64,000 nucleotides of DNA from Escherichia coli (GTDB lineage Bacteria > Pseudomonadota > Gammaproteobacteria > Enterobacterales > Enterobacteriaceae), in assembly GCF_029227855.1 (NCBI RefSeq), contig NZ_CP074357.1; one strand, 5' to 3'. Position 1 is the first letter of the stretch, and each line of letters opens with the position of its first letter. Positions 21,098-24,325 of this stretch are shown here, piece after piece. The notes below the pieces were generated by a model that saw only the letters and a list, made by a program, of their open reading frames with translations, had not been told where the DNA came from and did no database searches. The position numbers were made by a program, and so were the translations under genes.

Positions 21098-22727
21098 GTC
21101 AACGGTAATGAGTCAAAAGTCATTACCGTTGTCATTGTTCTCTACCACCCTATGTAGATCGAGATTGCGAAATTCAACGCTTTCTCCTGAGTCACCTGTT
21201 AACACCCGGTTTCTACGCTTTACTTCATTGGCCAGTACATCCAACGGAAAATATCGTAACGGGGTGACAATGGCAGTGAGTTGACCCACTCACTACCATC
21301 GACATTCAAATCCCGGCTTCTCTGGTAGCTATAGTGACAATGGTAATGATGTGTACCTTACTGGCATTGTCATTGTCCTCCGAGTGTGCGTTCAGCTTTG
21401 GGAGGACACCGGAACTTAATGCGGCGAGTCACGGCCATTGTGAATCTCGATTGGATTGGCGAATACGGCTTCCGGTTGGGCCAGATGTCAATGGTTATGC
21501 TTCATCCAGCTCATTACTGTAGTCATTGCCGTTCAGTTGAGCTGATGCTCCTCTCATTCTATATGGCGACAACGGTAGTGAGCCCAGAAAGTGACTACCG
21601 TTGTCATGGCCGTCCAGTAGAGCGGGTCAACCTCTTAACTCACAGGGTGACAACGGTAGTGAGCCCAGAAAGTGACTACCGTTGTCATGGCCGTCCAGTA
21701 GAGCGGGTCAACCTCTTAACTCACAGGGTGACAACGGTATTGAGCCCAGAAAGTCACTACCGTTGTCATGGCCGTCTGGTTAAGCAGATCATCCTCTCAA
21801 TTCACAGGGTGACAATGGTAGTGAGCCTATTAAGTCATTACCGTTGTCATTGCCATCCAGAAGAGCGGATGATCCTCTCAATTCATACGGCGACAATGGC
21901 AGTGAGCCCAGCAAGTCACTTCCGTTGTCATAGCCTTCCAGAAGAGCAGATGAGCCTCTTAATTAACAGGGTGACAACGGTAGTGAGCTCATTAAGTCAT
22001 TACCATTGTCATGGACGTACAGCTGAGCTGCTCATCCTCTCAATTCACACACCGACAATGGTAGTGAGCTATTAAAGTCACTACCATTGTCATATACGTC
22101 CAGTTAAGTGGACCATCCTCTCAATACACACGGTGACAACGGTAGTGAGCCATTAGAATCACTACCGTTGTCATTGCTTTTCAGGTGCACTGATAAGGCT
22201 CTCAATAGACACGACGACAATGGCAGTGAGCAATTAGAGTCACTACCGTTGTCATTGCTTTTCAGGTGCACTGATAAGGCTCTCAATAGACACGACGACA
22301 ATGGCAGTGAGCAATTAGAGTCACTACCGTTGTCATTGCTTTCAGCTGAGCTGATAAGGTACGTCATTTACACGATGACAATGGCAGTGAGCCAATCGAG
22401 TCACTACCGTTGTTAATGCCGACCAACCGAGGGAAGGGTCCGCTCAAAGAACTGAGTGACAACAGTAGTGAGATCATCCAATCACTACCATTGTCAGCTT
22501 AAACCTGTAGGACGAAGAGGCTTGTCCGATAAAATGACGACAATGGAAATGAGCCTATCCATCACTACCACTGTCATTAAAGTCCAGCGGTTCAACGTTA
22601 ATCAGTAGCTCCGGATGACAATGGTTGTGAGTCAGGCAATTCCCAAGCATTAGGTGACAGCAGCGTAACACCTCTAAGCTCACTTCTGTTGTCAGGGGTT
22701 AGGGTATTGAGTCTCTACCGTCGTCAG
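21098..22727. repeat. Tandem array of about 20 inverted-iteron units (GACAAYGGYAGTGAG-n8-CTCACTACCGTTGTC), period about 78 bp
   Basis: Read directly; the 21-bp iteron core appears as palindromic pairs separated by semi-conserved roughly 35-bp linkers. Confidence 0.85.
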
Positions 22728-22745
22728 TGTTGTGGTCAAATTTAA

Positions 22746-23111
22746 ATGGACACTTTGATCGGGTGTTTTCCCCCCGACAAGGAACATGAAGAGATGACCG
22801 ACAAGACAACCGACACAACCAAGAATCGCCGAACCTTTGATCCAGCGTTCAAGTTACAGGTGGCGCGCATGGTGCGCGAGCAAGGCGTCAGCGTCAGCCA
22901 AGTCTGCCGCGAAATGAAGCTGACCGAAAGTGTGGTCCGACGCTGGGTACACCAACTGGATGACGAGTCAGCCGGCAGGCCGGGGATTGGTAAACCGTTA
23001 ACGGCTGAGCAGCAACGTATTCGAGAACTGGAAGCCGAAGTCAGGCGACTAAAATCAGACAATGAATTATTAAAAAAAGCTTCGGCCTTCTTCGCACGGG
23101 AAATAAAGTGA
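22746..23111 (+). CDS. IS3-family transposase OrfA (HTH)
   Basis: 121 aa; HTH and leucine zipper; true start may be internal. Confidence 0.8.
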
Positions 23112-23986
23112 TCCACGATGTTGTCACTGAGTTAGCGAAGCAGGCCCCGATCAAGCAGGTCTGTCAGGCGTTGGACATCAGTCGCTCTGGTTACTACGCA
23201 GCGCGTCGCAGAGTCAATACACCCAAACCTATTTGCCAGGACAGCGTGCATGCTCAGGCGGTTTTTCTTGCCAGTGGTCGCACCTATGGCAGTCGTCGTT
23301 TGAGTGCAGCCCTGCGTGCCCAGGGCCATGATGTTGGACGTCATCGCTGTCGTACCTTGATGAAAGCCTGTGGACTCAAGGCCTGTTGGCGTCGCAAGTT
23401 CGCTCATACCACCGATAGCAAACACCATTTGCCGGTGGCAGAGAACGTGCTCAACCGTCAGTTTGAGCCTGAAGCACCCAATACGGCCTGGGTGTGCGAT
23501 GTGACGTACATTCGGACCGACAGCGGTTGGCTATATCTGGCCGCTGTGCTGGATCTGTATTCACGTCGCATCGTGGGTTGGTCCATGGCACCGACCATGC
23601 CTGCACAGCTGGTGTGCGATGCGTTGAGCATGGCTATTTCGGTTCGCCAACCGGCACCGGGTTTATTGGTTCATTCGGACCGGGGCAGTCAATATGCCAG
23701 TGCTGAACACCGGCAATTACTTGAAAACCATGGTCTGGTACTCAGCATGAGCCGCAAGGGTAATTGCTGGGACAATGCCGTGATGGAGCGGTTCTTTCTG
23801 AATTTGAAAATGGAGCGTGTCTGGCAGACTCGGTATGCCAACCATACAGAAGCCAAACAAGACATCACCGACTACATCGTTAACTTTTATAACAGTACCC
23901 GATTGCATTCAAAACTTGGCTACCGATCACCCGCACAGTACGAAACGCTGGCCAGCCCTGCCGCCCAGTTGCCCGCCTGTGCATAA
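23108..23986 (+). CDS. IS3-family transposase OrfB (DDE catalytic domain)
   Basis: 292 aa; DDE integrase core (…VHSDRGSQY…). Confidence 0.85.
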
Positions 23987-24030
23987 CCCTACCATCTGAT
24001 CGGCGTGTCCAAAAAAACTTGACCACAACA

Positions 24031-24325
24031 CAGTGTTTCTGAGACACCAGTATTGCAGATCACTACAATTGTCACTTAAATATCGACGGGGGAGTAGATG
24101 CAAGTGACTGGCTAACCAGTACCAGTTTAGATTCAAAACGATCCCATCTTTGTGGATGCGCTTGAGTAAGCTCGTATGACGATATGTCAGAGAAGTGACA
24201 ACAGGTGTGAGTTGCCGGACTCACTCCCGTTGTCATCCCCGGTTGAAGGAAGAGAATCCCCGGGGCTGTATATTTACCAAGTATCCTTACTCAAGGGGTT
24301 CGACACTCACTCCCATTGTCGTAAT
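24031..24325. repeat. Continuation of the inverted-iteron array beyond the IS3-family element
   Basis: Units at about 24040, 24205-24240 and 24295-24320 (e.g. GTGACAACAGGTGTGAGTT...ACTCACTCCCGTTGTCAT). Confidence 0.7.

Follow-up and report, generated by a model that had tools for sequence, protein, structure and literature searches.

The locus downstream of the repHI2A gene raises the question of why a plasmid would carry about 40 copies of its origin iteron outside of the origin. The window, a 64,000-nucleotide stretch of an Escherichia coli contig (NZ_CP074357.1), contains the RepHI2A replicon, which is specific to the IncHI2 group. Much of the carriage of mcr-1, mcr-9, blaCTX-M, and carbapenemase genes falls to plasmids of this group. 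An initial annotation of the locus proposed a copy-control sink that acts by handcuffing, a centromere-like site, or an incompatibility determinant. By comparison with related replicons, the array is most likely a brake on plasmid copy number.

The initiator gene repHI2A (repHI2; 19934-21022, plus strand) encodes a 362-aa protein of the P1 RepA/RepFIB family. Plasmid records that are 100% identical to the window annotate the product as RepHI2 (WP_000159529.1). The family assignment comes from tblastn searches against plasmids and phages. P1 RepA is 41% identical to RepHI2A over 74% of the protein (E 3e-61), and RepFIB-type Reps are about 50% identical. Sequence searches of Pfam, NCBIfam, and PDB with RepHI2A returned no useful match.

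The origin is located upstream of the gene and, as first annotated, contains two sets of five direct iterons, found by TRF and site listing. Set 1 (19193-19292, plus strand; TRF period 21) and set 2 (19617-19715, plus strand) both have 21-bp spacing, and the core of set 1 is GACAAYGGTAGTGA. The spacer between the sets (19293-19616) contains A+T-rich stretches and DnaA-box-like motifs at 19405-19413, 19500-19508, and 19509-19517, which are sequence motifs only, with one mismatch each. By analogy with P1 oriR, this spacer is presumed to be the origin-opening region. A promoter-like TTGACA-17-GACAAT from a promoter scan, a consensus match only, is located inside set 2 at 19678-19706. Upstream of the origin, the motif scan also finds a lone inverted iteron pair at 18931-18964, GACCATGGTAGTGAT-TAGA-CTCACTACCATGGTC, with a 4-bp gap.

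The repeats downstream of repHI2A contain the core of the origin iterons. The motif GACAAYGGTAGTGAG, allowing up to three mismatches, has 55 matches in the window, where 2.2 are expected and none of 100 shuffles reaches 55. With the insertion sequence removed, 40 of the 55 sites fall in the intergenic region between repHI2A and the next gene. The consensus sequences of the origin sets and of both arms, left and right, all contain the core GACAAYGGTAGTGA, and this sharing of a 15-bp core with the origin iterons bears out the first impression that the array is real and iteron-related. The strands of the sites alternate, plus and then minus, with an offset of 21-23 nt, so that 15-bp arms flank an 8-bp gap. 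Random placement of the sites would be expected to produce 0.9 such convergent pairs, whereas 17 are present, and divergent pairs are absent. The initial annotation recognized the inverted pairs, but its count of about 20 was slightly generous, and its period near 78 bp is replaced by the 81 bp given by TRF (11.2 copies, 81% matches, 21511-22420).

The field begins with three dispersed convergent pairs in 21098-21371 (21098/21119, 21266/21289, and 21336/21357). The first of these also resembles a terminator hairpin and is found 78 bp past the repA stop. The regular tandem block (21487-22616) is composed of 14 units in register, which are 81 bp long except for one of 80 bp and one of 78 bp. Within each unit, two 15-bp arms in inverted orientation flank an 8-bp gap, and a 43-bp spacer follows. 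The first of the 14 is degenerate, and the first clean unit, at 21568, is 546 bp past the repHI2A stop (21022). Degenerate distal sites follow in 22617-22727 (22617, plus; 22679, minus; 22711, minus) and end at the left copy of a target site duplication (TSD). The distal remainder of the iteron field (24034-24320) is 287 bp long and contains the pair 24197/24220 and single minus-strand sites at 24059 and 24306. The extent originally described, roughly 1.6 kb and then some 300 bp past the insertion, agrees with these boundaries.

Read from its sequence, each 81-bp unit is a composite of two complete convergent 15-bp cores and not one long binding site. Information per position is 1.66 bits in the arms, versus 0.80 in the gap and 0.93 in the spacer, and both arms hardly vary at positions 1-5, 7-8, 10, and 12-14. 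A diverged relative, the Citrobacter plasmid L007 (Rep 86% identical), has 32 sites with the same core in the 1.5 kb downstream of rep. These include nine convergent pairs at an offset of 20-24 (0.8 expected), and they have no regular 81-bp tandem frame. Because the arms outscore the gap and spacer and L007 keeps the pairs without the 81-bp frame, selection, as judged from these alignments, is on the sites rather than on the repeat unit. In a Pantoea relative whose Rep is 51% identical, a different iteron recurs in at least 12 copies downstream of rep and is also present directly upstream of the gene. By this comparison, the downstream sites follow each replicon's own iteron. On a small scale, the same layout recurs in the second replicon of the window and in a RepFIB plasmid.

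On the evidence of sequence, the array is the already described auxiliary iteron array of the IncHI2 RepHI2A replicon, the "long iterons" of R478. It agrees with this class in position, in unit length and number, and in sequence homology. In R478 (NC_005211.1), the same 2.08-kb intergenic region is 92-96% identical at the nucleotide level and contains exactly 12 regular units of 80-81 bp, the first of which starts 545 bp past the repA stop. These counts match the published description of twelve iterons of 80-81 bp, some 500 bp from repHI2 (PMC8490738). PMC4980987 describes R478 iterons of up to 76 bp, and both papers cite Page et al. 2001 and Gilmour et al. 2004 for the array. The position of the array, the unit length of 80-81 bp, and the unit order are the same in R478 and the window, and the Rep proteins (WP_000159528 in R478, WP_000159529 in the window) differ at few residues. 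R478 has 12 units, whereas the window has 13-14 because unit A is duplicated and an additional unit H is present. The window also carries ISKpn18 in the distal tail, which R478 does not.

Among the plasmids compared, the intergenic lengths are 1754, 1997, 2077/2078, and 2159 bp. Unit order is conserved, and the variation is in whole 81-bp units, with unit number ranging from 9 to 14. The array has been known for more than twenty years, and two extra units and an IS in the tail are ordinary variation. In the literature searched, the array receives secondary mentions only, and the IncHI2 evolution papers PMC9599605 and PMC9019673 contain no data on it. Set against the secondary descriptions of "long iterons" in R478 (PMC8490738, PMC4980987), the modest addition made here is that a "long iteron" unit consists of two convergent short origin iterons, and that the spacing, not the spacer sequence, is conserved in a diverged relative.

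The IS3-family element that was seen to split the array is ISKpn18 (22728-24030, plus strand). It is 1303 bp long, contains orfA (22746-23111) and orfB (23108-23986), and is identified by an NCBIfam IS3 transposase match (E 3e-102) and by the ISKpn18 annotation in plasmid records. The TSD is CAG, as initially reported, with copies at 22725-22727 and 24031-24033. The empty site, in which CGTCGTCAG is joined directly to TGTTTCTG with a single CAG, is seen in R478 and in five IncHI2 plasmids that lack the IS. Of about 1250 matching plasmid records, about 70, from several genera, have ISKpn18 at the array site. The suggested effect of the insertion on the function of the array is unlikely because the element is located in the degenerate distal tail, outside of the regular block, and because the roughly 70 carrier plasmids come from several genera. 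The insertion is probably neutral.

The P1 record annotates an oriR with a DnaA box, incC (five iterons, with PrepA inside), repA, and incA. The RepHI2A replicon shares this order of DnaA box and A+T-rich region, five 21-bp-spaced iterons, repA, and downstream iterons. Both replicons have a promoter-like site inside the origin iterons, and in both the downstream iterons possess the origin core and occur in both orientations. P1 incA is labelled as an incompatibility determinant and contains nine RepA-binding iterons in both orientations. The RepHI2A replicon likewise combines a homologous initiator with origin-core sites that are outside of the origin and downstream of rep, as in an incA-type locus. 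The scale differs, with 9 sites in 285 bp for P1 incA compared with about 40 sites over 2.1 kb for the RepHI2A array, so the array is larger than the classical incA, as the initial annotation held. The arrangement differs as well. P1 incA has three forward and then six reverse sites at 30-40 bp spacing, whereas the RepHI2A array has convergent pairs with an 8-bp gap in 81-bp units. The function of P1 incA is experimentally established, while for the RepHI2A array we infer RepA binding, negative control, and incompatibility from this likeness.

RepFIB-type replicons (P307 type) have iterons on both sides of rep, with the downstream ones in mixed orientation, as here. A pESI-like RepFIB plasmid has about 8 downstream sites in 250 bp. 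With few sites and without a tandem unit of 81 bp, the RepFIB replicons are unlike the RepHI2A array in scale and regularity. Control by auxiliary initiator sites through titration and handcuffing has been reviewed (PMC6090056). In Vibrio cholerae chromosome 2, the ori2-inc region, the 39-mers, and a distal titration locus are initiator sites outside of the minimal origin that restrain initiation (PMC6090056). The V. cholerae initiator RctB is unrelated, and its inhibitory 39-mers differ from the iterons in sequence, whereas the auxiliary sites of RepHI2A are iterons. Acinetobacter III-4a megaplasmids, e.g., the conjugative pALWED1.1, have about ten 83-84 bp tandem units hundreds of bp from rep. 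The authors who describe them explicitly compare these repeats with R478 and report no sequence similarity (PMC8490738). They place the repeats on the start-codon side of rep, in contrast to the RepHI2A array downstream of rep.

The array is probably an expanded incA-type locus that binds RepHI2A, restrains initiation by handcuffing and titration, and sets incompatibility. Among the functions first proposed, handcuffing, copy control, and incompatibility are best supported by homology (41% identity to P1 RepA, same layout), and a centromere is unsupported. RepHI2A would bind each arm, probably as two monomers per pair, in a fixed tail-to-tail geometry. About 40 loaded sites would then restrain initiation in the manner of P1 incA or the RepFIB downstream repeats. 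Handcuffing would couple the loaded array to the origin iterons, both in cis and in trans, and titration would soak up initiator. The predicted outcome is a low copy number and IncHI2-specific incompatibility, since an array that binds RepA and restrains initiation would also be an incompatibility determinant. Gain or loss of whole units would tune the strength of control, and the natural dosage series of 9 to 14 units is convenient for following how handcuffing and titration scale with site number.

The pairs with an 8-bp gap have no counterpart in P1 incA, and thus the binding mode, and perhaps the function, may differ. If RepHI2A is autoregulated, simple titration would be buffered and the weight would shift to handcuffing. 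IncHI2 plasmids also have a second replicon, and repHI2 can be lost (PMC9599605), so selection on the fine control of RepHI2A may be weaker than the incA-type model assumes.

The array might instead be a component of the origin, in which the long repeats are essential or stimulatory, as an initiation enhancer or a second initiation zone, rather than negative. This is unlikely. PMC8490738 states that cloning suggested "functional activity" of the long iterons, with the sign of the activity unstated, and more than 1000 IncHI2 plasmids keep the array. However, the DnaA-box-like motifs, the A+T-rich stretch, and the 21-bp phased iterons are all upstream of repA, as in P1 oriR. The array itself has a G+C content of 47% and no A+T-rich region, and its unit number varies freely across the range given above. 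In pEC21Z063-17K, a 16.8-kb circular record, the RepHI2A origin and gene are kept and the whole array is absent. The other Rep of this plasmid is truncated to 35 aa, and there is no other intact Rep. This is consistent with an array that is dispensable for replication, though the record comes from one assembly and might be an assembly product related to IS26. The records that accompany it in its assembly are 110, 100, 47, and 1.6 kb, and none is a full-size IncHI2 plasmid.

A centromere-like or tethering site is improbable. Here, the array would serve segregation or pairing instead of copy control, together with RepHI2A or a partition adaptor, as EBNA1 does on the family of repeats (FR) of Epstein-Barr virus (EBV). 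The FR element of EBV oriP is made up of about 20 tandem units with palindromic sites for the virus's own initiator and is separate from the initiation site. It is involved in episome tethering and segregation and acts as a fork barrier. In form, the approximately 17 regularly spaced palindromic sites of the array resemble centromere arrays, and the pair geometry kept in the diverged L007 points to a defined higher-order complex more than to a simple sink. The arms, however, are the iterons of the RepHI2A replicon itself. EBV is a eukaryotic viral system with a protein unrelated to RepHI2A, and the RepHI2A array shows no sign of an FR-like role. The remark that no partition pair is visible nearby also stands, as no ParA, ParB, ParM, or ParR is annotated within the window. 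Homologous replicons such as P1 partition by means of a separate parS, and their downstream iterons serve control. In IncHI2 backbones, parAB and parMR are located in or near the transfer region (PMC9019673, PMC9448873).

Little probability is also given to a Rep-dimer sink or operator. The pairs would bind RepHI2A dimers, like the inverted half-iterons in the operators of repE, pir, and pPS10 repA, and would shift the monomer/dimer balance with no handcuffing. The inverted arrangement, with spacing fixed within the array and in L007, would suit such a site, but the full 15-bp core is present in both arms and not one half of it. The half-site shared by F RepE sites is GACAA. In the array, the ends that correspond to the F-type half-site point outwards and are about 33 bp apart. 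Moreover, the array is downstream of rep and does not overlap the rep promoter.

It is similarly doubtful that the convergent pair is a distinct unit, with two RepHI2A molecules tail-to-tail on each 38-bp palindrome and 17 pairs that build an ordered nucleoprotein filament, a structure that does more than handcuffing. Such a filament might be an initiator-dependent pairing or tethering site or a replication-fork barrier, comparable to EBNA1 on the EBV FR.

An element that binds no protein, either a repeat-protein gene or a hairpin/cruciform field in single-stranded DNA or RNA, is the least probable of all: the repeats are spanned by ORFs of 229 and 102 aa, with a hypothetical protein annotated there in some records, and a 15-bp stem is possible per pair, but inter-unit substitutions number 204/320/174 at the first, second, and third codon positions, with the minimum at the third, the 80- and 78-bp units shift the frame, arm mismatches are 2.62 within units versus 2.60 between units (p = 0.62), and arm position 15 is a constant mismatch. 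With no third-position excess and a broken frame, the protein-coding repeat was rejected, and the ORFs are artefacts, as first judged. The hairpin/cruciform was rejected for its lack of arm-to-arm covariation. Like the centromere, the gene and the hairpin element have no support. An RNA element is opposed by the absence of any Rfam family in 18800-24500 and of an excess of promoter-like sites. Transcription through the array as a regulator was dropped because neither promoter-like nor terminator-like sites are enriched over shuffles.

The RepHI2A array, with its approximately 40 sites, is the largest seen among the P1/RepFIB family examples compared. If the pairs do build an ordered filament, array size would scale with plasmid size in this family. 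Plasmids of Citrobacter (297 kb) and Pantoea (172 kb) also carry large arrays.

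The RepHI2A (repHI2) replicon of this IncHI2 plasmid occupies 18.9-24.4 kb of the window. A 3.6-kb query spanning it has 1234 matching plasmid records in PLSDB, many of them 100% identical, with hosts that include Salmonella, E. coli, Enterobacter, and Klebsiella. In these records, the gene 19934-21022 carries the annotation IncHI-type initiator RepHI2. Upstream of this gene are two sets of five direct iterons with 21-bp spacing (19193-19292 and 19617-19715), the origin layout proposed in the initial annotation, and the spacer separating them contains A+T-rich stretches and DnaA-box-like sequence motifs. 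A lone pair of inverted iterons, 4 bp apart, is located at 18931-18964, ~230 bp upstream of the first origin set and directly 3' of the gene for the upstream Ig-like protein, so that inverted pairs bracket the replicon. Large Ig-like domain protein genes lie on both sides of the replicon (16370-18826, plus strand; 24488-26908, minus strand) and are present in all IncHI2 plasmids examined. Ig-like proteins are tied to IncHI conjugation in one report (PMC6764697).

Downstream of repHI2A is a large array of the same iteron. The core GACAAYGGTAGTGAG, allowing up to 3 mismatches, has 55 matches in the window versus 2.2 expected by chance, and 40 of these are within the 2159-bp intergenic region (IS removed) between repHI2A and the next gene. 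Array sites alternate in strand, with each plus-strand site followed 21-23 nt on by a minus-strand site, and form convergent pairs, each of two 15-bp arms around an 8-bp gap. These pairs number 17, compared with 0.9 expected if the same sites were placed randomly, and no divergent pairs among the array sites. The tandem block (21487-22616) is composed of 14 units in register, each holding one pair. Its period is 81 bp, apart from single units of 80 bp and 78 bp. Three more pairs are dispersed between repHI2A and the block, and degenerate sites follow it. Information content across the units is 1.66 bits per position in the arms, 0.80 in the gap, and 0.93 in the 43-bp spacer. The left-arm and right-arm consensus sequences and those of the two origin iteron sets have GACAAYGGTAGTGA in common, and the units are therefore iteron-related, as first described. 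Originally believed to contain about 20 palindromic pairs with a period near 78 bp, the array keeps its paired repeats but has 17 to 18 pairs and a period of 81 bp by TRF (11.2 copies, 81% matches). The first downstream pair, at 21100-21131, also resembles an intrinsic terminator (12-bp stem, 8-nt loop, and T-rich tail) 78 bp past the repHI2A stop, and might double as the repHI2A terminator.

This is the published RepHI2A long-iteron array of the IncHI2 reference plasmid R478. R478-type long iterons of RepHI2A are already mentioned in two papers that cite the primary literature (PMC4980987; PMC8490738, on Acinetobacter megaplasmids). The R478 intergenic region (NC_005211.1) is 2077 bp, is 92-96% identical to the window, and has 16 pairs, with exactly 12 regular units of 80-81 bp, the first 545 bp past the repA stop. 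Compared to R478, the window array is two units longer and has acquired an ISKpn18 insertion. Two points may be under-appreciated: each "long iteron" consists of two ordinary iterons in convergent orientation, and the pair spacing is conserved in a diverged relative. In the window and six IS-less relatives, the intergenic lengths are 1754, 1997, 1997, 2077, 2077, 2078, and 2159 bp, which differ by multiples of 81 bp, within 1 bp. Unit labelling reveals a conserved order in which whole units are gained or lost: A A B C D E F G H I J K L in the window, A B C D E F G I J K L in pCFSA1096, and D E F G I J K L in pSH111_227. The window has the longest array among those compared.

The diverged relative is a Citrobacter plasmid (NZ_CP056823.1) with a Rep 86% identical to RepHI2A and a different backbone. 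It is a 297-kb plasmid of non-IncHI2 type (MOBH, MPF_T), and ~110 plasmid records are found in the same 80-90% Rep identity band. Both sets of five origin iterons are retained. Within 1.5 kb downstream of rep (2941-4468) there are 32 same-core sites, including nine convergent pairs (offset 20-24) versus 0.8 expected; this stretch has no regular 81-bp frame, and its spacers are unrelated. Conservation between the two plasmids extends to the sites and their pairing, not to the repeat unit. In a Pantoea agglomerans plasmid (NZ_CP084199.1, 172 kb; Rep 51% identical), a different iteron, TTACTCGCTAYAGTGGTTAT, is present in at least 12 copies over 1.1 kb downstream of rep (1200-2280), mostly in direct orientation. 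Because TTACTCGCTAYAGTGGTTAT is also directly upstream of that rep gene, the downstream sites follow the iteron of their own replicon. Among big plasmids of the RepHI2A-type Rep family, extensive auxiliary iteron fields may be common.

RepHI2A is ~50% identical to RepFIB-type initiators and 41% identical to P1 RepA (E 3e-61). The annotated P1 genome has the same layout of oriR (DnaA box and GATC sites), incC, repA, and incA. P1 incC has five iterons with 21-bp spacing and the repA promoter inside, and incA has nine RepA-binding iterons in 285 bp, three forward and six reverse. The array is best read as an expanded incA-type control locus. The leading suggestion of the initial annotation, a copy-control sink and incompatibility determinant, is the most likely function on the strength of homology to P1. 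RepHI2A would bind each arm. Because the full core, not half, is kept in both arms, the simplest expectation is that each pair holds two monomers, fixed tail to tail. Once loaded, the array would handcuff the origin iterons, both in cis and on other plasmid copies, and would also titrate the initiator. Both effects would limit initiation and make the array a determinant of IncHI2 incompatibility. Handcuffing and titration are established for P1, and we infer them for the array and RepHI2A. A review covers both in iteron replicons and in Vibrio chromosome 2 (PMC6090056).

Other functions are less consistent with the array. A positive origin element is unlikely, as the DnaA-box-like motifs, A+T-rich stretch, and phased direct iterons are all upstream of repHI2A, and the array is 47% G+C with a freely varying unit number. 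A hairpin or cruciform element is disfavoured, as arm mismatches are no fewer within a unit than between units (2.62 vs 2.60, p = 0.62) and position 15 is constantly mismatched. A centromere, also suggested initially given the lack of a nearby ParA/ParB pair, is not supported. The array sites are initiator sites, the annotation of the 64-kb window includes no partition genes, and IncHI2 backbones have parAB and parMR elsewhere (PMC9019673). A dimer-specific operator does not fit full-length arms downstream of the gene. ORFs through the repeats, initially dismissed as artefacts, are indeed rejected as coding: unit-to-unit differences by codon position are 204/320/174, fewest at the third, and the reading frame is lost at the 80-bp and 78-bp units. 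Against an RNA or transcriptional role, an Rfam search of 18800-24500 has no family match, and promoter-like sites are not enriched.

ISKpn18, an IS3-family element, is located at 22728-24030 with CAG on both flanks. Five IS-less IncHI2 plasmids and R478 have the empty site, ...CGTCGTCAG|TGTTTCTG, with a single CAG, which confirms the boundaries and also the target duplication (CAG) originally reported. The insertion point is in the degenerate tail, past the regular block, and four distal sites (24059, 24197/24220, and 24306) are cut off from the rest. The element is at the same place in ~70 of ~1250 matching records from several genera, so the insertion is compatible with maintenance and spread. 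Rather than altering array function, as had been considered, it is probably neutral.

One E. coli record lacks the entire downstream array, which fits the control-locus reading. pEC21Z063-17K (NZ_CP101267.1) is a 16.8-kb circle in which IS26 joins two IncHI2 backbone segments, window 3286-11570 and window 15278-21057, with the RepHI2A origin and gene intact and the other Rep truncated to 35 residues. No full-size IncHI2 record is present in its assembly. The circle may represent a mini-RepHI2A replicon of natural origin and, if it is real, replication can do without the array; as a single record, this carries little weight, and the copy number of the circle would be informative. The circle is also without the segment at 11648-15245, which lies between both replicons of the window and contains IS66-family (tnpB and transposase, 12028-13960) and IS5-family (14277-15245) elements.

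The second replicon (window 1-3600) has a minus-strand Rep gene, 2532-3407, which comes first in the R478 record and encodes 291 aa that are 43% identical to RepHI2A. Its layout is the classical small one, in which its own iteron (AAAGGCATT...GAATG type) has a few upstream sites (3459-3542, 21-bp spacing) and about six downstream sites (2152-2394). At the far end of the downstream iterons is an IS21-family element (~63-2016; istA 149-1171, istB 1168-1950) with an apparent target duplication, ATTGG, at 58-62 and 2017-2021. Given the positions of this element and ISKpn18, both replicons carry an IS in the downstream iteron field. One further iteron-like site is found at 36-56, beyond the IS21-family element.
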